Source: Halanaerobiales bacterium (GTDB lineage: Bacteria > Bacillota > Halanaerobiia > Halanaerobiales > M55B127). From it: 64,000 bases of DNA. Below the pieces are notes generated by a model. That model was not told where the DNA came from. It saw only the letters and a program-made list of their open reading frames with translations, and did not search any database. Location: assembly GCA_018334565.1 (NCBI GenBank), contig JAGXLU010000004.1:13909-77908 (forward strand), given 5' to 3'. Positions within the stretch are counted from its first letter, which is position 1; every line of letters begins with the position of its first letter. Positions 1,215 to 52,753 of this stretch are shown here, piece after piece. The position numbers and the translations under genes are program-made.

Positions 1215-1835
1215 TAATCGGGTAATCGGTAGATGAATTAATTCATCTACCGACCTCCCACACCTCTGTAAAAAAGGTCTCATATACAGCAGTTCAATAA
1301 CTATCTGTAAATCTTTCGATTGTATTAACTTTCATATTACATTCCATGCTCTGAATATTTATTGAGAAATTCCATTTTCTTTTCAATTAAGAAGCTCTAA
1401 TTAAAAGTTGACTGTGTCCTTCATGTTCTATGAAGTAATAACCAAATATATAATTATCGTTCTGTCCTTTAAAGCCAAAATTTCTAATGGCATATAAGTA
1501 CTATGACAGAAACTGACTCTCATCATAATTCTTATTTCAACCACATATCTAATGTGTCCATGAGACCTCAAAGGTTAAGTATTAAGTCTTTTATTTTATA
1601 TATCAGCCACATTTACTGTAATAACTTTCGCACCATAAAAACTTTGGTTTGTTTAACAAACTTATCAAGTTATAGTCAGCCTCAAATGTGATTTAAGTTC
1701 CTCGGACCAAACTTTGTTTTAAACTTCCTTCAGATTTATAATCACCTACGCCGCCCTTTTCATCAGCTATCTCCTAGATCATGTTCGGAATTCGAGTCTT
1801 TCACACTTTAGATTTAATACATACCTGTCAAATTA
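1215..1835 (-). mobile_element. ORF-less group IIC intron-like RNA, probably a relic
   Basis: The minus-strand read starts right after a hairpin plus U-tract. It contains ordered group II blocks: ..CGAATTCCGAAC, AATCTGAAGGAAG, CACATTTGAGGCT, GATAAGTTTG..AAACCAAAGT, GTCATAGTAC, AAGGACAGAAC, a DV-like TTGAACTGCTGTATA..TACAGAGGTG, and the 24-nt palindrome GGTAGATGAATTAATTCATCTACC. No RT ORF. About 3/4 identical by eye to 24113-24440 over domain I. Confidence 0.7.
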
Positions 1836-1891: not shown

Positions 1892-3457
1892 CTATTTAAA
1901 TGACATTTCTTTAAATACTATCCAAGTATCTGGTCTGGGCACAAAATGAACACTACTGCCCTTATTTATTGCATAGGTATCTTCCTGATAATGAAGCGGT
2001 ATTACAGCCACATTTTCTCTTCCCATCGCCAGCCTATTTAGATCTTCTAATAGGCTTGCTCTGATTGCAGGATCTATAACTTTTTTACTTGCTTCATATA
2101 TTTGATCAGCTACCTGGTCAGAATATCTTGCTCCATTAAAGGTTCCATATCCAGTTTCTTCATCTATTGTATGAAGTAATTTAGAATATGATCTACCAAA
2201 ATCAAAAGTGCCATCAAACCAACCAATTAGATAAAAATCTAATTCATTATTCATGACCTCTTCAAAATATACAGATTTAGGTTTGGCGTCTACCTCCACA
2301 TCTATTCCAACTTTTGAAAGATAGCTTGCCACAGTTGCAGCAATTTGTTCATCCTGTACATACCTGTCATTAGGAGCAGTTAAAGTGATTGAAAATCCAT
2401 CACCATAACCTGCTGCTTCTAGAAGCTCTTTGGCTCTCTTGGGATCATATGGTAACCTTTCAATTTTTTCACTATATCCAGCTGTCGGTGGATCAGGTAT
2501 TTGAGCAGCCGGTGTAGCATGACCAAACATCACTTTGTCTATCAACTCTTCTTCATTAATCGCCATATACATAGCCTGACGTACTCTTACATCAGAAGTT
2601 GGCATTTTATCTTCATTACTCAGACCTAAATAAATAGCCCTTCTTGACGGTCTAGCAATTACTTGTAAATCAGAATTGTTTTCCACTGCCTCATACATAG
2701 TTACAGGTATCCCCTGTAAAATATCCACTTCACCACTACTGATAGTAGCAAGCCTTGTTGAAGCCTCAGTTACAGGTCTTATCTCTGCTTGTTTAACTTC
2801 AGGTACATCATCCCAATATTCTTCATTGGCACTCATTTTTAAATATGAGCCTTTAACCCATTCATCAAAAACATATGGTCCCGTACCAATTGGTTCAGTA
2901 CCCATTTTACCCTGTGATCTTTCCATTGTAGATTCTTTGTCCACAATAAAAACCTGATGCATGTTTTGATCGAAATAAGGGATTGAATCTTTAGTTACAA
3001 TATCAATTACCCATTCATTTCCATCTACAGTACTTACAGATTCTATGGATGACCCAAAAGAAATAAATTCTGATACTTCAGGATTTTCTAGTCTTTCTGC
3101 AAATGTATACTGTACATCTTCCCAGGTAAAATCATTCCCATTGTGGAATTTAACTCCTTTTCTTAGTTCAAATCGCCAGGTAAAACGATCAACTCTTTCC
3201 CAGTTAGTTGCCAAAGCTGGCATTAATTCACCCTTTGTATTCCTTTGTAAAAGTCCTTCAAACATATTACTCATTATCGAAAGATTCGAATCAGCATCTG
3301 AACCGTGTGGATTCATTGTCCTAGGTGGTGCCTCAACAGCAACTGAAACCTGACTATCTTGTGCAAAAACTCCCATACTCCCTATTAATAAAAGACTAAC
3401 AACAATAAATAAAATAAGAATCTTACTACTTTTAATACTCATTACTCTCCTCCTCAT
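1892..3457 (-). CDS. ABC transporter substrate-binding protein, family 5 (peptide/nickel)
   Basis: 521 aa with an N-terminal signal/TM segment. Shares WxFxLxKGVKFHNGxDF, GTGPY and EYWD/DYWG blocks with the paralog at 58231-59745. Confidence 0.9.
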   Translation of the reverse strand: MRRRVMSIKSSKILILFIVVSLLLIGSMGVFAQDSQVSVAVEAPPRTMNPHGSDADSNLSIMSNMFEGLLQRNTKGELMPALATNWERVDRFTWRFELRKGVKFHNGNDFTWEDVQYTFAERLENPEVSEFISFGSSIESVSTVDGNEWVIDIVTKDSIPYFDQNMHQVFIVDKESTMERSQGKMGTEPIGTGPYVFDEWVKGSYLKMSANEEYWDDVPEVKQAEIRPVTEASTRLATISSGEVDILQGIPVTMYEAVENNSDLQVIARPSRRAIYLGLSNEDKMPTSDVRVRQAMYMAINEEELIDKVMFGHATPAAQIPDPPTAGYSEKIERLPYDPKRAKELLEAAGYGDGFSITLTAPNDRYVQDEQIAATVASYLSKVGIDVEVDAKPKSVYFEEVMNNELDFYLIGWFDGTFDFGRSYSKLLHTIDEETGYGTFNGARYSDQVADQIYEASKKVIDPAIRASLLEDLNRLAMGRENVAVIPLHYQEDTYAINKGSSVHFVPRPDTWIVFKEMSFK

Positions 3458-3523
3458 TATTATATACTGTTCATTATATAAAAATATTGCTTTACTTGCA
3501 AACAGAATGAAATATTTTAAATA

Positions 3524-5053
3524 TTATGATAGTGCAAAACTGTCTCTAATTTTATTAATTAAAACATTAGAATCAATAAGTTCTTTTGCCTTCTTAATTT
3601 CTGGATACAATATCCTATCATGTTTGAGAAATCCTATATTTTCTCTGATACATTCATAAATTTTGACTGTGCCTTCTCCTAAATCCTGTTCTGGTTTTTC
3701 TGTTCTGAGATCAACTGCCTGAGCGGCTGTTAATAATTCGATTGCTATGATTTGAGCCACATTATCACAAATTTTATATAAATTTCTGGCACTGATTGAT
3801 CCCATACTCACATGATCTTCCTGATTGGCTGAAGTCGGAATTGAATCGGTACTGGAAGGATTAGCCAGTATTTTGTTTTCAGAAACAATAGAAGCTGAAG
3901 TATATTGGGCTATCATATAACCAGAGTTTAAACCTCCATGTCTAGTCAAAAACATTTCTAAACCATTATTTAAACTGCTGTCTATTAGTTTCGCTGTTCT
4001 TCTTTCTGATACATTACCAATCTCACTAACTGCCATACCTAAATAATCACTACTTAAGGCCAAAGGTTGTCCGTGAAAATTTCCTCCTGAAATAACCTTA
4101 TTCTGCCCGGAAAATATTAAAGGGTTATCAGTAACAGAATTAATTTCCCTTTCCACAATTTCTGTAACATGTGATAAACAATCTCTTGTCGCCCCATGTA
4201 TCTGTGGCCCACATCTTAAAGTATAAGAATCTTGCACCCTTTCATCATCTATATCTACCATTAGATTACTGTTTTTAATCAGTTTTCTTATATTTTGAGC
4301 TGATTTAATTTGTCCGGGATGAGGCCTCAATTTATGAATATCTTCATCAAAGGGTCCTTTTATACCTTTTAGCCCCTCTAAAGAAAGCGCCAATGCTAAA
4401 TCAATTGCGATAATTAGTTTTTTAGCCCTAATGATACTCATGGATTCTAAAGCGGACATCATCTGTGTCCCATTAATGAGCGCTAGACCCTCTTTACTAT
4501 CCAATTTGACAGGTTGAATGTCTTCCTTTTTTAAAGCTGTAATACTATCCACTATATCCCCTTTATATTTGACTTCACCCTTTGCTAACAGGGGTAATAC
4601 CATATGGGCTAATGGTACTAGATCACCACTGGCACCTACAGATCCTTGCTCAGGTATTAAAGGAATAATATCTCTGTTAAACATTTTAATCATACTTTTA
4701 AGTGTATGAAGTTTTATGCCCGAATAACCCTTAGCTAAAGCATTGATACGTAAAAGTATCATTGTTTTAGAGGTCTGGTCATCCAGATAGACTCCCGAAC
4801 CTGCAGCATGACTTACAATCAAGTTTTCCTGTAACTGTATTATTTTATCTTCCGATATTTTTTTGTTACTGAACTTCCCAAAGCCAGTATTGATACCATA
4901 AATTACTTTTTGGCTTTTTATAAATTTTTCTACAGTAGCCCTTGATTTCAAGATATTTTTTTCTGCTTGCTTAGATAAAGCAATCTTTTTATGAGAAAAG
5001 ATTATATCTTCAATTTTATCAATATTCAGATTTTCACCGTTTATATAGTACAA
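3524..5053 (-). CDS. hutH: Histidine ammonia-lyase
   Basis: 509 aa. Aromatic amino-acid lyase family with the MIO-forming ASG in GSVGASGDLVPLAH. Lies in the hut cluster. Confidence 0.9.
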   Translation of the reverse strand: MYYINGENLNIDKIEDIIFSHKKIALSKQAEKNILKSRATVEKFIKSQKVIYGINTGFGKFSNKKISEDKIIQLQENLIVSHAAGSGVYLDDQTSKTMILLRINALAKGYSGIKLHTLKSMIKMFNRDIIPLIPEQGSVGASGDLVPLAHMVLPLLAKGEVKYKGDIVDSITALKKEDIQPVKLDSKEGLALINGTQMMSALESMSIIRAKKLIIAIDLALALSLEGLKGIKGPFDEDIHKLRPHPGQIKSAQNIRKLIKNSNLMVDIDDERVQDSYTLRCGPQIHGATRDCLSHVTEIVEREINSVTDNPLIFSGQNKVISGGNFHGQPLALSSDYLGMAVSEIGNVSERRTAKLIDSSLNNGLEMFLTRHGGLNSGYMIAQYTSASIVSENKILANPSSTDSIPTSANQEDHVSMGSISARNLYKICDNVAQIIAIELLTAAQAVDLRTEKPEQDLGEGTVKIYECIRENIGFLKHDRILYPEIKKAKELIDSNVLINKIRDSFALS

Positions 5054-21352: not shown

Positions 21353-22462
21353 TCACAATTTCTTTTCAATTTGTTTTATTTTAAAAGCATTAAATATATC
21401 TGTTCTGGTAATGATGCCAACCAGCTGATCTTCCTGTATTACCATCAATCTACCAATGTCTTCTTCTAATAATATTTGTAAAGCCTTATTTACATCTGCT
21501 TCAGGTGATATTTTTTTAATATCGGTTGACATAATATCATCAACATAAATATTATGATGCTGATCTTTTTCTATTGTTCTTATATCCTCCATGGTAACAC
21601 AACCAATCAATTTGCCGTCTTTCATAACCGGATAACCACTGTGACTATGGTGAAGCATCTTATCCAGCAATTCTCGAACAGTCAGATCGCTGGAAATATA
21701 TGATACATCCTTACTCATTAATTCTTTAACCTTTAAATTAGATAATGTAGCTTTAATCAAACTATATTGAAATTCTTGATTTGCCCTCATATAAATAAAG
21801 AAAGCAATTAATACTAAAATAAAGTTACCATATAGAACACCAATGATCCCAAAAATAAAAACTATTGCTTTACTAATCCCTACTGCAATCTTTGTAGCAG
21901 ATAAAAAGTTTCTTTTTCTAGCTAAAAATGCCCTTAATACTCTGCCACCATCATTGGGAAAGGCTGGTATCAAATTAAATAAAGCTAAAAAAACATTTAA
22001 TTCCCCTAAATACAGGATGAAGAAAATAATATCTGGCATTACAATATTAAAACTTATTTGTGCTATAAAAATAAAGGTCAACCCAATTGCCAAACTAACC
22101 ATAGGTCCAATTATGGAAATGCGAAGTTCATCATCGGGATCTTCTGACATTTCTTTTATTTCAGCCACTCCTCCTAACAACATAAGGGTTATACTGTTAA
22201 TCTCTTGCCCCCTTGAACGGGCAACAAAGGAGTGTCCTAATTCATGTAAACCTACACTAATAAATAATGATAAAGTAATAAGCAAACCCAATATATAATC
22301 AGGAACTACCATATCACTATAACTAATATTCATTATTTCAGCCATCATTTCTATATTTGTTGATACTATCCAGGCAATAAAAGGTAGGGCCAATATAAAA
22401 CTGATATGTAGCTTAATTGGTATATTAGAAATACTACCAATTTGAACTGATTTTTTAAACAT
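21353..22462 (-). CDS. Site-2 protease family (M50) metalloprotease with tandem CBS domains
   Basis: 369 aa. HELGHSFVAR, the downstream NLIPAFPNDGGRVLR motif, and a C-terminal CBS pair. Confidence 0.85.
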   Translation of the reverse strand: MFKKSVQIGSISNIPIKLHISFILALPFIAWIVSTNIEMMAEIMNISYSDMVVPDYILGLLITLSLFISVGLHELGHSFVARSRGQEINSITLMLLGGVAEIKEMSEDPDDELRISIIGPMVSLAIGLTFIFIAQISFNIVMPDIIFFILYLGELNVFLALFNLIPAFPNDGGRVLRAFLARKRNFLSATKIAVGISKAIVFIFGIIGVLYGNFILVLIAFFIYMRANQEFQYSLIKATLSNLKVKELMSKDVSYISSDLTVRELLDKMLHHSHSGYPVMKDGKLIGCVTMEDIRTIEKDQHHNIYVDDIMSTDIKKISPEADVNKALQILLEEDIGRLMVIQEDQLVGIITRTDIFNAFKIKQIEKKL

Positions 22463-22474
22463 TAATATTACCCC

Positions 22475-23305
22475 CTAAAATTCAATTTCTAATTTTTTTT
22501 CAAAATCAAATGTTTTTCTATGAATTGGGGTAAAACCAAGCTCTTTTACAGCTATTCTGTGTTCTTTTGTTATATAACCATAGTTTGTATCAAAATGATA
22601 ATCAGGATATTTACCATGCAGTTTTTTCATTCTGTTTTCCCTATGCACCTTTGCCGCTATAGAAGCACAGGCTATTGTGTATATCTTCTTTTTTGTATTT
22701 TTTATAACTTTATTATCTCTTTTATTAATACCATATTTATAGTATATGAAGAAATCTTTTTCAATATTTAATTCAACTGCCTGCTCTAATGTCTCTTCTA
22801 TTTCTCTATAACCTGTTTTAATCGCTTCTTTCAAACCTAATTTATCAATTGCCTCCACATTAATATGCTTTATATTAATATATTCAGATTCATTTTTTAG
22901 CTTCTTAAAAATTTTTAATCTCTGTTTTTGAGTTAAATTATTACAATAATCAATACCCATAATTTCTGTGAAACGATTTAATTTCAATATACATAAGGTT
23001 AAAGGACCAGCTGCAGCTGTCAAACCAGTAACATAAAATCCATATATATTATGATAACCTTTGTTATATATTTGGTTTTCTATGTTTTTAAAAGTTGATA
23101 GTTTCCCTTTCAATTTCTGTATTTTATGATATCTTTTTTCACAATTTAATGCTATCTTAGTGGTAGTTTTTCTGCTATCAGTAAAAAGAGCATCAATTAA
23201 ATCACGATCTATCTCAATTTTTTTAATTAATCTTCTGATTTCAGCAACAGATTTATCAGTTATATTATATTTATCATCAAATTGTAATTTTGGTTTGTAC
23301 TTCAT
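22475..23305 (-). CDS. RNase HII-like protein with substituted active-site residues
   Basis: 276 aa. The C-terminus ACASIAAKVHRENRMKKLHGKYPDYHFDTNYGYITKEHRIAVKELGFTPIHRKTF is RNase HII-like. Where the family has IAGxDEAGRGPLAGPV, this protein reads IYGFYVTGLTAAAGPL. Confidence 0.65.
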   Translation of the reverse strand: MKYKPKLQFDDKYNITDKSVAEIRRLIKKIEIDRDLIDALFTDSRKTTTKIALNCEKRYHKIQKLKGKLSTFKNIENQIYNKGYHNIYGFYVTGLTAAAGPLTLCILKLNRFTEIMGIDYCNNLTQKQRLKIFKKLKNESEYINIKHINVEAIDKLGLKEAIKTGYREIEETLEQAVELNIEKDFFIYYKYGINKRDNKVIKNTKKKIYTIACASIAAKVHRENRMKKLHGKYPDYHFDTNYGYITKEHRIAVKELGFTPIHRKTFDFEKKLEIEF

Positions 23306-23454
23306 CAGATCAGCACCTTGTTTTTTTATATAAACTCTTTATTATATAATTATTCATTAAAGTCCAAAATCCTTTATATAAAGTACTTTATAACCCTGCA
23401 AAAACAATCGGTTTTATAATTTCACTTTTTATCACAAATTGTTTAATTTTTAAA

Positions 23455-23985
23455 TTTTTATGTTTTTTAAAACTAAGTTAATTACTTTCTTATCTTGAAT
23501 CTTCCTAGCTACTCTGGACATTAAAATATCATGATTAACTCGGTCAAAAAACTTTGAAAGGTCCATATCTACTATTCAATGTTTCCCGGATTGCATATAT
23601 TCTCTAGCTTAATTTACTACCATCTTCTGGTTGTGCCTCTTTCTGAATTCAAGACTACTGGCTGAAAATTCTTCATCAAATTTCCAGTCCGATTTCTGTA
23701 TCATTGCCAGCTGGTACGCAGGTATTTTCGGAGTTCCGACACCTGCATTCCATCTATTTTAGGAGCAATGTCTTTCTTCTCCATGTATTCCAGTGCTTAA
23801 ATACATTATCCCATAAAATGTGCTCCATCAATTCCATACTTTTCCTCTTGCGACACTTCTCCTATCAGCCGTAACGGATATGTTCAGCACTCCAATAGGC
23901 CCTTCGTACTTCCAGTGCCGGTATAACCCCTGTAGCATTTTCTGTCTTCATTGCATATCCATGTCGATACTCATATGTCCATCTC
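23455..23985 (-). pseudogene. Group II intron reverse transcriptase/maturase, fragmented
   Basis: Frame-hopping translation gives LMEHIL..NVFKALEYMEKKDIAPKIDGMQVSELRKYL and FSASSLEFRKRHNQ..IVDMDLSKFFDRVNHDILMSRVARKIQDKKVINLV (RT domains 0-4). There are several stops and frameshifts. The fingers-to-X/En part is absent. Confidence 0.75.
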
Positions 23986-24440
23986 TGATTTGATGTTCAA
24001 GCCTTCCCTGAATATCGTGCATCCCGGGAGTAACAACTACTTAAAGTAGTTATTGCTATAAATCAGTTAGACTAAAAACTTTGATGTGTTGTGAAACAGT
24101 ATACAGTACTATGACAGAAACTAACTTCTCATGCTAAATCTTATTTAAACCACATATATAATGTGTCCATGAAATCTCACAGCTTAAGTACTAAATCTTT
24201 CATTTCATATATCCGTCATATCTACTGTGATAACTTTCGCACAATAGGGACTTTGTTTTGTATTGCAAACTCATCCAGTTATATTCAGCCTCAAATGTGA
24301 TTTAAGTACCTCGGATGGAAATTTTGCTTTAGACTTCCTTCAGATTCGTAGTCACCTACGACACCCTTGTCTTTAGCTAATTTTTAAATCGTGTTCGGGA
24401 TTCAGGACTTTCCCCCTATAAATTAAGTGCATGCCTGTCA
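23455..24440 (-). mobile_element. Group IIC intron relic (domains I-III plus degraded, 3'-truncated RT ORF)
   Basis: Starts on the minus strand just after the csp terminator. Blocks: TATAGGGGGAAAGTCCTGAATCCCGAAC, CAAGGGTGTCGTAGGTGA, GAATCTGAAGGAAG, CACATTTGAGGCT, GGATGAGTTTGCAATACAAAACAAAGTCC, GTCATAGTAC, CAGGGAAGGCTTGAAC. RT-like reading frames follow. Confidence 0.8.
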
Positions 24441-24450
24441 AAAAAACAGT

Positions 24451-24478
24451 AAAGCCCCGGTTAAATAACCGGGGCTTT
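24451..24478 (-). terminator. Rho-independent terminator of csp
   Basis: Minus strand reads AAAGCCCCGG-TTATTTAA-CCGGGGCTTT followed by ACTGTTTTTTT. Confidence 0.8.
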
Positions 24479-24499
24479 CTTTTTAAAATATTAATCTAT

Positions 24500-24706
24500 T
24501 TACATTTTTTCTACATTTTCAGCTTGAGGACCACGCTCAGCTTCAACTATTTCAAATTCTACCTCTTCGCCTTCTTCTAAACTTTTATAGCCATCTTCAT
24601 TAATAGCAGAAAAATGTACAAAAACATCTTCTTCAGAGTCTTCCCTTTCAATAAATCCAAAACCTTTTCTAGAATCAAACCATTTAACTTTTCCAGTATA
24701 AATCAT
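24500..24706 (-). CDS. csp: Cold-shock protein (CspA family)
   Basis: 68 aa. [25 protein letters not shown] (RNP1/RNP2). Confidence 0.95.
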
Positions 24707-24741
24707 TTAAATATTCCTCCTGTATATATTTATTTATTATA

Positions 24742-24831
24742 TGGTGCCGGGGATCGGGCTCGAACCGATACGGGAAAATAATTCCCACCGGATTTTAAGT
24801 CCGATGCGTCTGCCAATTCCGCCACCCCGGC
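24742..24831 (-). tRNA. tRNA-Leu (anticodon UAA), CCA encoded
   Basis: The reverse complement GCCGGGGTGGCGGAATTGGCAGACGCATCGGACTTAAAATCCGG..long variable arm..GGTTCGAGCCCGATCCCCGGCACCA folds as a cloverleaf. Anticodon loop is CTTAAAA. Confidence 0.9.
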
Positions 24832-24860
24832 CGACTGCAACTTTTGTTGCAACATTTTAG

Positions 24861-24889
24861 ATTATAATATAAATAACAGTACATGTCAA
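24861..24889 (-). promoter_or_regulatory. Sigma-70-type promoter for tRNA-Leu (and probably csp)
   Basis: Minus strand reads TTGACA-17 nt-TATAAT, about 30 nt upstream of the tRNA 5' end. Confidence 0.7.
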
Positions 24890-24925
24890 GAAATTACAAA
24901 TCTTCTAAAACTATAAAATATGTTA

Positions 24926-26236
24926 TCAAGCTCTTTTATTATATACTTTTCTTTGTTTAACTTCACCTGACTTGTATAAGGCAAACTCTGTAGCAGCAGA
25001 TCCGGAAATTTCTGTAAATAAACTGGTAAATAAGATGATATTAAAAATTATGACCGCCACATCAACTTCTGTATTGGTTATATGTGCAAAATCTCTTTGA
25101 ACTATATAAGCCAAATCTAATGCGACACCTATCTGGGGCATAAGTCCAAAACCTATATATTTTTGGACACTGTTAGGTGCTTTGGCTATCTTTGCTCCAA
25201 TTGATGCCCCACCAATTTTCCCTATTAATCTTGTTATTGTATATATTAATGCTATTATCATAAATGAACTTGTAAAAATATTAGTGATTTGTATTTTGGT
25301 ACCGGCAAGTATAAAAAACAGTGCATATAAAGGCATAGTTAAAGTTTCTATTAAATCAGCTACTCCAATATGTCTTTTAGCAAAATTACAAAAAGCAAAT
25401 CCTACAAATAAATTATATATAAGTGGGGAAATATGAAGAGCAATTGATAGTGAAGTACCTCCAATCACTGTTAATAGTATCAAGAAAATCTTCTGTTTTT
25501 TTGAATGGTCAAAACAAATATACCTTTGAGAAACATAACCAATTGCTAGACCAAGACCGGCTGCTGATATAATTTTTACTAAGGGTAGAATAAAACCATT
25601 TACAATATTTAAAGCCTGCGCAGGATCAATAGTAATTAATGATATCGGTTCAACAAAACTAAATATAACGAGGGCTAAAGCCTCATCTAAAGCCAGAACA
25701 ATCATTAAAGTAGCTGAAAAAATACCCTGCACTCCATATTCTTTTAAAATCAAAACAGTTGCCGCAGGAGCAGTAGCTGTAGCAAAGGCTCCCATCAGGA
25801 TTGCTAAATAAGGTGGTTTGCCTATATATAACATACTCAATGATACCAATGCAAAAGCCCCTATAGATTCAAAAAGAATAATTAAAGTAAACTCCGTTTC
25901 CATTTTTTTTAGAACTTTAAGAGAAAGCGAAGTACCTATAGTAAAAGAGATAAAAGAAACTGCTAAAATCGTTACGAAGTCAAAAGAATTAATTAAATAT
26001 GCATACCAATCAATAAACTCCTCACTAAAAAAGGGGATTTGTTTTATAAGGCTAGAGCTAAATAGTGTTCCCACTAATACATAACCAGCCACACTGGGTA
26101 AACGAAATTTTTCAGTAAATGTATGGATTAAAAAAATAAATAATAATAATAAACCAATGATGAATATTATTTTATAACTTCTATGATGAACCATCATCCA
26201 ATTTTGCAAGTCTAATAAGTTATTGGTATAATCCAC
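24926..26236 (-). CDS. Cation:proton antiporter (CPA/Kef-type Na+/H+ exchanger family)
   Basis: 436 aa, about 12 TM, with the typical sodium/hydrogen exchanger family layout. Confidence 0.7.
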   Translation of the reverse strand: MDYTNNLLDLQNWMMVHHRSYKIIFIIGLLLLFIFLIHTFTEKFRLPSVAGYVLVGTLFSSSLIKQIPFFSEEFIDWYAYLINSFDFVTILAVSFISFTIGTSLSLKVLKKMETEFTLIILFESIGAFALVSLSMLYIGKPPYLAILMGAFATATAPAATVLILKEYGVQGIFSATLMIVLALDEALALVIFSFVEPISLITIDPAQALNIVNGFILPLVKIISAAGLGLAIGYVSQRYICFDHSKKQKIFLILLTVIGGTSLSIALHISPLIYNLFVGFAFCNFAKRHIGVADLIETLTMPLYALFFILAGTKIQITNIFTSSFMIIALIYTITRLIGKIGGASIGAKIAKAPNSVQKYIGFGLMPQIGVALDLAYIVQRDFAHITNTEVDVAVIIFNIILFTSLFTEISGSAATEFALYKSGEVKQRKVYNKRA

Positions 26237-51116: not shown

Positions 51117-51310
51117 ATCCCCTACTAAATATTATATTTTCAAAACACATCAAAATGGTTAAAAGATAAATGATTAATCATCTACTTTCTTTGCACAACT
51201 CTGTATATAAGGATCTCGTATACATTGGTTCAATAATTATTTATAAATCCTTCAATTATATTAACTACCTTATTACCGAATTGTAGCCGATAAAGCCTCG
51301 CCTATGTTAA

Positions 51311-51424: not shown

Positions 51425-51815
51425 ATGATGAATACCTACAAAAGTACAAGATACGCAAAGTTCCTTTTAAACTATCATTTTATATGGATACCTAAATATA
51501 GAAAACATATTTTAGACAATCCTGAAATCAAACAATTAACTTGAGATACTATTAATGAATTAGCTGATACACATAATTTTGAAGTATTAACTACTTACTG
51601 AAATGATGCCAGACCATATACACCTTTTTTATATCAGCTTTGCCTAAGTATTTTTCCAGTAAGCTAATGAACATCATTAAAGGTACTACTGGAAGAAGTA
51701 TATCAAAACACTTTCCAAAATTGAATATTAAAGGTTCTGTATGGACTAGAGCTTATTTTGTGGCCACTGCTGGCAATGTTAGTTCAGAAACTATTCAACA
51801 CTATATTGAAAATTA
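51425..51815 (+). pseudogene. IS200/IS605 TnpA (Y1 transposase), disrupted
   Basis: MMNTYKSTRYAKFLLNYHFIWIPKYRKHILDNPEIKQLT-stop. Other frames then give MPDHIHLF.. and KLMNIIKGTTGRSISKHFPKLNIKGSVWTRAYFVATAGNVSSETIQHYIEN. Confidence 0.8.
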
Positions 51816-51827
51816 AAGGTGATTAAT

Positions 51828-51905
51828 ATGCAATTGACTTATGTTTTAAAATTACCCAAACCAACTAAAAGAAAACAAAATATATTTTTAAACAATATTG
51901 CAGAA
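51828..51905 (+). pseudogene. TnpB N-terminal stub (about 26 codons)
   Basis: MQLTYVLKLPKPTKRKQNIFLNNIAEVV is a typical TnpB N-terminus 12 nt after tnpA. Coding similarity stops abruptly where the intron-like sequence begins. Confidence 0.6.
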
Positions 51906-52720
51906 GTAGTTAGGCACCGTCAAGCTGTCGTGTCTATAGGCACTTGCTCACCTACAACTTCCCTCACGACTTACCAGCCTTTGACTCAATAATCCAGTCC
52001 ATTAACCCCTGTTCTTCATGATATTATCAACTGCGTTTTAAAAATCCAATCGCACCTGCTTATATATTATTACTCAGGTCACAGTGTTTCTGCCCTGTCT
52101 TACCTACGGTTTTTCTTCCCCTTAAGCACCATCCGGCAAACTCACTTTCTATCAGTGTCTAAACTACTTAACAGTTAATCAACCACTCTTATCTTGTCTC
52201 CAATTTCGGATAGCATCAGTACCCTTCACTCCAGTTGGCTTTTTCCTCGGAACAACTATCATCACTACTATGGTAACGTCTGAATACTGATGTAGCTTTA
52301 CTTCAGTTTTCCCACTAAAGGTTATACCTCCGCTTACTCAATCCAGTCTGGTTTGAGACTCATCATCATCACCATCTTGCAGTCATTTTGACCCTAAGCA
52401 CACCCATCAACTCAACATACTCCTATGGTCTATTGGACTTCCCCATTGTGTGGGAAGGTCGCCGTTGATGAATGCCACCCCTGGTTCATATATTATTCCG
52501 GACTAACTGCTCGCCTCAGACTCTTCAGATTCCACCTCACAGTGAACACCCTGTCCTTGTCGGCTTCATGTACCGTCATTTATAAACTTAGGCTGAAGTT
52601 TGTGTTCTCCGTTTACTCACCCATTTCGTCTGTAAATGCCACAATATCTCAACCATATTTTCCATACTTCCAGCACAGATAGAATTTTCATCTACTATTG
52701 GTATAGACTACGAGACACAC
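51906..52720 (-). mobile_element. Group II intron 5' portion (domains I-III and start of IV), 3'-truncated
   Basis: The minus strand begins GTGTGTCTCGTAGTCTATACC, 11 nt after a hairpin plus U-tract. It contains AGCCGACAAGGACAGGGTGTTCACTGTGAGGTGGAATCTGAAGAG and many complementary segments. It is visibly GC-richer than its flanks and has no credible ORF. Confidence 0.6.
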
Positions 52721-52731
52721 CACGACAAAAA

Positions 52732-52753
52732 GAGCCCCGATTGCTCGGAGCTC
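52732..52753 (-). terminator. Terminator-like hairpin plus U-tract immediately upstream of the intron 5' end
   Basis: Minus strand reads GAGCTCCG-AGCAAT-CGGGGCTC followed by TTTTT. Confidence 0.5.

Follow-up and report, generated by a model that had tools for sequence, protein, structure and literature searches.

Remains of a class C group II intron with reverse transcriptase fragments between csp and rnhB of a Halanaerobiales bacterium

Group II introns of class C (IIC) possess a unique epsilon-prime region, in which an 11-nt bulge contains a conserved AGGAA, and the IIC intron B.h.I1 of Bacillus halodurans is inserted 3-11 nt past the stem of a terminator (PMC1702495). In bacterial genomes truncated or inactivated copies are the majority state of group II introns (PMC4424553; PMC4028801). 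Here we analyzed an element of about 1 kb in a metagenome-assembled genome (MAG) of an uncultured Halanaerobiales bacterium. It is located on the minus strand between csp and rnhB, from 24443 to ~23450 of a 64-kb stretch of contig JAGXLU010000004.1. This whole stretch is referred to as the window, and coordinates are window positions unless a locus is named. Proteins of the window were identical to MBS3810612, MBS3810619 and MBS3810624 of an NCBI MAG annotated as Halanaerobiales bacterium. The spacer between the two genes carries no annotation. The element is here named c2 or the csp-rnhB relic; a further copy at 1217-1833 and a third intron-like region at ~51900-52720, both on the minus strand, are named c1 and c3, respectively. 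Loci fetched for comparison are labelled L001 to L041.

With high probability c2 is the inactive relic of a full-length IIC intron encoding a reverse transcriptase (RT), which was inserted behind the csp terminator after the split from the lineage of relatives whose site is empty. It would then have lost its first nucleotide (G1), the frame of the RT, the RT blocks 1-2 and, by deletion, 0.8 kb of its 3' part, and would now drift as a neutral spacer.

Like B.h.I1, O.i.I1 of Oceanobacillus iheyensis and GsI-IIC of Geobacillus stearothermophilus, c2 has a small domain I, the AGGAA bulge and a 4-nt loop of exon-binding site 1 (EBS1). Furthermore, it shares with IIC introns the sense insertion a few nucleotides past a terminator and an RT remnant that is closest to the RT of GsI-IIC (PMC1702495; PMC4424553), and in its sister copies domain V (DV) contains a CGC triad and has a shortened distal stem. 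In contrast to IIC introns, c2 lacks DV, domain VI (DVI) and the palm and thumb of the RT, its open reading frame (ORF) is frameshifted, its 5' end is UUUUG and its domain III is enlarged. Compared with truncated group II copies nothing fundamental differs: c2 is non-functional, it lies outside housekeeping genes, mobile-element debris is present in the window, and the loss concerns the 3' end.

The IIC-attC introns of integrons belong to the same class C ribozyme and RT lineage and likewise have a stem-loop in DNA as target (PMC3001079). However, the target of c2 is a terminator with a T-run and not an attC site, no integron context was found, and c2 is devoid of the 3' end, which carries outward promoters in IIC-attC introns (PMC3001079).

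Structural composition of the relic

The first part of c2 is a ribozyme part with the features of IIC. The region 24361-24189 of the minus strand matched RF02001 (group-II-D1D4-3) with 125.1 bits (cmscan, E 3e-25), compared to 78 bits for c1 (1751-1580). Domain I is short (~255 nt), as in IIC. According to the RF02001 alignment an unpaired AAUCUGAAGGAA bulge is located between two helices at ~24337-24326, and the same block was present in all relatives. The EBS1 loop GCAAUACA spans 24266-24259, with EBS1 itself at 24264-24261. From 24443 to 24095 the relic was 80-90% identical to c1, L007, L013, L014 and L015 (blastn), and the similarity stopped at about 24095-24100. The alignment with c1 reached 80.6% over 356 nt (24455-24100 versus 1844-1493, E 3e-88). 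The first-pass annotation of this DNA had proposed c2 as a second IIC copy behind the csp terminator, homologous to c1 at roughly three-quarters identity by eye and fitting the IIC blocks even better than c1. These proposals are in agreement with our data, the first of them on account of the RF02001 match, RT matches among PDB chains confined to IIC and a spacing of 7 nt to the terminator. For the middle of c2 (24100-23830) no homologue was found in the fetched loci except its own orthologues.

Intron position 1 was set to 24443 by alignment with twelve relatives. The region annotated in the first pass is therefore real, but its segment 24444-24478 represents the csp terminator and its tail. 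Canonical relatives, which were found on plasmids of C. botulinum and B. smithii as well as in Bacillota MES13, Lutibacter sp. B2, Hathewaya and C. ganghwense, start with GUGCG, GUGUG or GUGCA right after a hairpin and T-run. Four Halanaerobiales copies (L007, L013, L014 and L015) start with GUUUG. In the window c1 starts with AUUUG and c2 with UUUUG, neither of which corresponds to the GUGYG of IIC. Since a G precedes TTTGACAGG in the four better-preserved members, and based on the boundary given by EBS1 and intron-binding site 1 (IBS1), the 5' end of the family is GUUUG. Both window copies have thus lost G1, which is replaced by U in c2 and by A in c1. The TTTGACAGG that had been described as a shared 5' end was indeed present in both copies, but the true terminus is located one nucleotide further out.

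EBS1 was defined as positions 3-6 of the loop in GAGUUU-NNNNNNNN-AAAC. It pairs with IBS1 at 4/4 positions in five canonical introns (L006, L008, L010, L012 and L016) and at 3/4 in two. Within the family 4/4 pairing was found for L007 and L013 (both AACA/UGUU), L014 (UAUA/UGUA) and c1 (UAAA/UUUA), the last one read by hand as the script pattern had missed it.

The RT ORF of c2 is broken into three fragments, each in a different frame, and contains three in-frame stops in total. Using the 471-aa RT of L009 and the RT of the C. botulinum plasmid as tblastn queries, residues ~140-220 were placed at 23692-23465 (E 1e-17). Remnant 1 was not aligned by tblastn with the N-terminus of intact RTs, and Pfam returned no family for the stitched remnants 1 and 2. 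The stitched peptide matched TIGR04416 (group_II_RT_mat, E 1.2e-19) at profile positions 90-164 of 353, and Pfam RVT_1 (E 4e-6). Between remnants 2 and 3 only 23 nt replace ~51 residues, which means that ~130 nt with RT blocks 1-2 were deleted. This confirmed what had been suspected from the letters, namely RT-like peptides spread over different frames with stops and an apparent internal deletion; the quoted peptides were located in three different frames, and the RT-domain matches and the tblastn map support their nature and the gap between them. Past residue ~220 tblastn with the RTs of intact relatives detected no RT homology in c2. In terms of L009 the lost 3' part comprises ~835 nt, with the RT palm and thumb followed by DV and DVI.

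Among PDB chains the remnant matched only RTs of IIC (6ar1 of GsI-IIC, E 3e-24; 5hhj, 5hhl and 7uim), and neither the IIA LtrA nor the IIB RT was matched. The intact RT of L009 scored 514 bits to GsI-IIC, 142 bits to LtrA and 126 bits to the IIB RT. The class C lineage of the remnant of ~80 aa is assigned by similarity search. It is the sole RT remnant of the window according to tblastn with the two intact RTs.

RF00029 gave no match with E <= 1 in 22000-25500. For this clade it is no usable test for DV, as the intact relatives L009 and L018 were also below threshold. Because RF00029 misses the DV of intact relatives, a dedicated covariance model of DV and DVI (R1) was built from eight relatives and run unfiltered over the whole window. 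In the model, 12 pairs showed both-sided compensatory changes among 12 sequences, a score that was reached by 0 of 500 shuffles, and pairing was 91.9% compared to 37-44% in slid controls. No match was obtained near c2; the only matches of the window were 1217-1299 (66.8 bits) and 51154-51235 (32.8 bits, E 6.5e-6). We considered these two pieces as the lost 3' half of c2, and rejected this since they belong to other copies. The absence of domains V and VI, as reported before, is consistent with both models being blank at c2. Without DV, DVI and a canonical 5' end c2 is filed as an IIC-derived relic rather than as a functional member of IIC.

Table 1. Positions of the csp-rnhB relic, its flanks and related elements
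Feature	Position	Strand	Basis or remark
csp, 68-aa cold-shock protein, upstream 'exon' gene	24706..24500	-	ORF; Pfam CSD on identical protein
csp intrinsic terminator hairpin, 12 bp, 4-nt loop	24478..24451	-	T-run follows; orthologous to terminator of empty-site relatives
7-nt 5' flank ACUGUUU, stem to intron; last 4 nt GUUU at IBS1 position	24450..24444	-	
Intron 5' end UUUUG (GUUUG/GUGYG in relatives) and domain I	24443..24189	-	RF02001, alignments, EBS1 table
Domain II, J2/3 and start of domain III (GUCAUAGUAC)	24188..24095	-	Last part in common with ORF-less family
c2-specific enlarged domain III (ends GGGAAGGCUUGAAC) and 5' part of domain IV before ORF	24094..23838	-	Direct sequence reading
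RT remnant 1 MELMEHILWDNVFKHWNTWRRK, RT N-terminus, block 0	23837..23772	-	Resemblance to intact RT N-termini, by eye
RT remnant 2 IDGMQVSELRKYLRTSWQ, other frame	23757..23704	-	tblastn: residues 79-96 of L009 RT, 45-61 of C. botulinum RT
RT remnant 3 SDWKFDEEFSASSLEFRKRHNQ..VDMDLSKFFDRVNHDILMSRVARKIQDKKVINLVLKNIKI, third frame, two in-frame stops	23692..23453	-	RT residues ~140-220 of ~470
~53 nt from last RT homology to shared flank, ends ACCGAU followed by U	23449..23397	-	No DVI hairpin; assignment without statistical support
Conserved rnhB upstream region, original 3' flank	23396..23306	-	In all empty-site relatives; alignment, blastn
c1, 617-nt ORF-less member, AUUUG start, damaged DV, intact DVI	1833..1217	-	7 nt after terminator 1866-1841
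ORF-less members elsewhere	L007 3000-3620; L014 4289-4908; L013 428-1048; L015 106-726	-	
ORF-less member elsewhere	L031 4262-4878	+	
c3, GC-richer group II-like relic, starts GUGUG	~52720..51900	-	11 nt past terminator 52732-52753
IS200-like Y1 transposase pseudogene	~51425..51820	+	Pfam Y1_Tnp, E 1.6e-30 on stitched frames
Isolated decayed 3' fragment of same family, end of domain IV with DV and DVI	51276..51154	-	blastn, 77-80% to c1 and L007

Insertion, decay and fixation at the csp locus

Syntenic loci were obtained via members of the Csp cluster and showed the order amylase, (Na/H exchanger), csp, rnhB and M50 peptidase. The csp-rnhB spacer had a size of 141-151 nt in L024, L032-L035 and L036-L041 compared to 1194 nt in the window. 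Due to the short spacer in these related Halanaerobiales genomes, c2 represents an insertion. The csp terminator folds with -25.8 kcal/mol (z = -5.9), and a stem-loop is what an IIC intron recognises in place of IBS2. In c2, which has the sense orientation for csp, as well as in c1 the distance from the end of the hairpin to intron position 1 is 7 nt, inside the 3-11 nt of B.h.I1 (PMC1702495), and all twelve relatives were located 5-13 nt past a hairpin and T-run. The position of both window copies behind terminators of unrelated genes had been pointed out in the first-pass annotation and is correct.

Based on the insertion behaviour of characterised IIC introns (PMC1702495; PMC4424553), a ribonucleoprotein of the intron would have recognised the stem-loop of the csp terminator together with the short IBS1. 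It would have reverse-spliced into the DNA 7 nt past the stem in the orientation of csp transcription, and the RT would have copied the intron into DNA. A site just past a terminator probably causes little harm to the host. This event would date after the split from the empty-site relatives. The later losses presumably comprised G1, the ~130 nt of RT blocks 1-2 and the RT frame (at least two frameshifts and three stops), as well as a deletion past RT residue ~220, by which ~0.8 kb with the palm (YADD), the thumb/maturase domain X, DV and DVI would have been removed. Since a truncated 5' end would be the outcome of abortive target-primed reverse transcription, the loss at the 3' end is taken as a later deletion in the DNA. 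Without DV neither splicing nor reverse splicing can be catalysed, and without RT no copying is possible. At present c2 would be a neutral 1-kb spacer reaching from the csp terminator to the promoter region of rnhB.

The relic was found with the same lesions in JGI, ENA and NCBI assemblies, in total in more than ten independent ones, and at least 8 JGI/ENA contigs span csp, relic and rnhB. The Logan counterpart L001 stops upstream of csp, short of the relic. Across the sampled strains of the species c2 is fixed. Comparison of the window with L003, L019, L025, L027 and L030 revealed two haplotypes of the relic, with 3.1-3.8% substitutions and one 13-nt indel (23926-23938) between them. Elsewhere the haplotypes diverge by 0.3-1.1% in flanking genes, 0.80% at codon third positions and 1.0% in other intergenic regions; the excess within the relic had Fisher p values of 3e-7 and 7e-6. 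Of the 11 differences in domains I and II, haplotype B has the derived state at nine. In view of this distribution there is no support for gene conversion from other copies as the source of the raised divergence.

The contig L029 (GCA_035269185.1, DATFJK010000033.1, 1-3928) is 98.6% identical to the empty-site species (L039) through the end of csp. After csp it matches haplotype B of the relic at 99.7%, and it breaks off within the relic. Either recombination between species at csp or a chimeric assembly would explain this switch.

Such a contig, which switches species exactly at csp, and the origin of the host genome as a MAG could indicate that collapse or chimerism at a repeated intron during metagenome assembly produced the truncated structure artificially. 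In light of the spanning contigs, which all have the same three-segment order with small indels only, we regard this as close to impossible. Selection for a new role, either as structured 3' untranslated region or read-through RNA of csp or as spacer or promoter of rnhB, would be compatible with the fixation in all sampled strains and with a domain I which still scores like that of intact copies. Yet the relic is the fastest-diverging part of the locus (~3.4% versus 0.3-1.1%) with an indel polymorphism, and its divergence together with the mostly derived state of haplotype B argues against selective maintenance. In addition, the conserved block upstream of rnhB lies outside the relic and is intact, only one weak promoter-like match (9/12) was found inside, fewer than in shuffled sequence, and the relic is placed behind a strong terminator. 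Exaptation is accordingly very improbable. A further alternative arises from L031 (MAG BLK6-1.bin.131, same assembly as L013), where a 617-nt ORF-less member is located behind the same csp terminator. Here csp, terminator and 350 nt of intron align with the window at 81.6%, and the two elements might be one ancient insertion which decayed differently in two lineages. The element of L031, however, is 79% identical to c2 and 88% to L013, and L007, which occupies an unrelated locus, shares 88.5% identity with c2. The terminator of L031 is similar to those of the empty sites L032 and L035, and nine other relatives are empty as well. A common insertion is therefore unlikely, and from the sequence comparison the element of L031 is read as an independent hit on the same terminator.

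Several observations weigh against the reading of c2 as a neutrally drifting relic of a formerly active intron. Its EBS1 (AAUA) pairs at just 2/4 positions with GUUU, which is weaker than in most relatives. The 125 bits of its domain I are about equal to the 126-133 bits of apparently intact family members. The ribozyme half is thus little decayed, and the inactivation is not readable from this part alone. Moreover, the relic diverges faster than the neutral proxies, so that plain neutral decay is not the full explanation. Finally, its 3' boundary is undefined. The flank in common with the empty sites resumes at ~23396-23383, and the ~53 nt at 23397-23449 end with ACCGAU followed by U, which would allow a single extended deletion inside the intron that starts at RT residue ~220 and stops within DVI, with the terminal intron nucleotides kept. 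The relic would then extend from 24443 to 23407 with 23412-23407 as surviving nucleotides, and both exon junctions would be preserved. In favour of this, ACCGAU is followed by UGUUUUUG, the 3' end of the family is CCCGAU followed by U, and empty-site relatives carry UUUUUUG right after the terminator stem. On the other hand, the match covers just 6-7 nt in AT-rich DNA, model R1 is blank there, the segment shows no excess of folding (z = 0.03), and the closest empty-site relatives are ~72% identical in the flank, due to which the original junction is not reconstructable. We therefore give such an internal deletion a minor but appreciable chance and prefer the loss of the complete 3' part. In the same segment MAFFT placed ACCGAUUGUUUUUG (23412-23399) against the terminator 3' arm of the empty-site relatives, and an older second terminator was considered. 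This was rejected, as the hairpin at 24478-24451 is itself orthologous to the empty-site terminators.

The ORF-less family and further mobile-element debris

The copy c1 aligns end-to-end with L007, L014, L013, L015 and L031 with 77-85% identity, and all of them have a size of 617-621 nt. These ORF-less copies were found in at least 5 Halanaerobiales MAGs with unrelated flanks, each behind its own hairpin, and their EBS1-IBS1 matches co-vary with the site. The uniform size together with the co-varying pairing suggests that the ORF-less unit itself was mobile in trans. No RT remnants were found in the fetched ORF-less copies. L007 and L014 fold to canonical DV and DVI, while in c1 the distal helix of DV is destroyed. 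In the sister copies the DV is of the CGC type, and the DVI carries a bulged A at a distance of 7 nt from the 3' end; both domains, with the CGC triad in DV, were seen in L007, L014 and L009. The family is not recognised by RF01998, which matches canonical relatives. In a neighbour-joining tree of domains I and II c2 was located in an unresolved cluster with the ORF-less copies, and the full-length GUGYG introns stood separately. Because it keeps RT remnants and has a different domain III and IV, c2 itself falls outside the ORF-less set, and it is the only family member found with RT sequence. Judging from the sequences, the GUUUG sub-family is a Halanaerobiales-specific branch of IIC, in which every other copy found is an ORF-less unit of 617-621 nt. 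The first-pass annotation had proposed one intron family that repeatedly targeted terminators and then decayed. This holds for c2, but c1 is no random debris and belongs to a conserved ORF-less derivative, which apparently spread in this form among Halanaerobiales genomes.

An intact master copy, a search for which had also been suggested, was found neither in GTDB representative genomes and JGI metagenomes nor by protein searches. An exact 20-mer of domain I yielded nothing in the GTDB representative genomes and only orthologous loci in the JGI metagenomes. By scanning the GTDB representative genomes with a degenerate 23-mer 12 loci were obtained, of which the close ones were all ORF-less and the full-length ones (L008, L009 and L018) were GUGYG relatives with ~74% identity. 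A word-indexed protein search with the stitched RT resulted only in fragments of <=230 aa with <=60% identity. Exhaustive phmmer with the last 41 residues revealed no near-identical RT, a weak test given the short query and a library clustered at 50%.

It is conceivable, though we hold it only tentatively, that c2 is the fossil of an autonomous RT-encoding partner of a non-autonomous mini-IIC family of 617-621 nt, similar to the relation of long and short interspersed elements (LINE/SINE). The family, with its unusual GUUUG 5' end, would have spread in trans behind terminators among Halanaerobiales, and the csp terminator would have been hit twice, once in each of two lineages; some copies (L007 and L014) may still splice or move if RT is supplied. 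The one well-studied case of proliferating ORF-less introns is IIB-like and cyanobacterial: TeI3 and TeI4 of T. elongatus, where one ORF deletion was followed by proliferation in trans by the RT of a related intron (PMC2882425). Like TeI3, the elements c1, L007, L013, L014, L015 and L031 have one architecture and size at different sites with good EBS1-IBS1 pairing, and c2 would match the ORF-containing relative of TeI4-type. In contrast to TeI3, they are terminator-targeting IIC elements and not IIB-like, the copies are distributed over several MAGs instead of one genome, no RT remnants are left at the deletion, and no intact driver RT was found in our searches.

By itself c2 is class C debris as expected and of little importance, worth annotating as such. 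Its value lies in the context, as the only RT-bearing copy found of a GUUUG IIC sub-family which is otherwise uniformly ORF-less. A terminator-targeting IIC counterpart to the cyanobacterial case, which comprises empty and filled sites and one terminator putatively hit more than once independently, would be useful as a natural data set on the spread of non-autonomous introns and on the 5'-end variants tolerated by the IIC ribozyme.

Besides c1 and c2, further remains are present in the window. The 3' fragment at 51154-51276 was 80% identical to the 3' end of L007 and matched the DV-DVI model with the 32.8 bits mentioned above. It could have been inserted with a truncated 5' end or be the tail of the neighbouring relic. 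The c3 region matched RF02001 with borderline 32.2 bits (52546-52368) and RF01998 with 21 bits; neither an RT remnant nor a PLSDB plasmid match was found for it. The Y1 transposase pseudogene, which contains stops and a frameshift, is located between c3 and the 3' fragment. Together the IS200-like pseudogene and the two intron fragments form a small mobile-element graveyard within ~1.6 kb.

Two of the relatives are IIC introns on plasmids, L005 (C. botulinum p3BKT015925, 2982-4860) and L006 (B. smithii pDSM4216, 2993-3632). For both introns no gene is listed in the PLSDB gene table, which is incomplete. One of them has a frameshifted RT and abuts an IS21-like element; the other lacks an ORF, is compact (~640 nt) and has a good DV (RF00029, 47 bits).

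Upstream of csp a tRNA-Leu(UAA) was found at a distance of 35 nt, within 24742-24889 of the minus strand, preceded by a perfect TTGACA-17-TATAAT promoter (24889-24861). The tRNA may share a transcript with csp, which would end at the terminator targeted by the intron.

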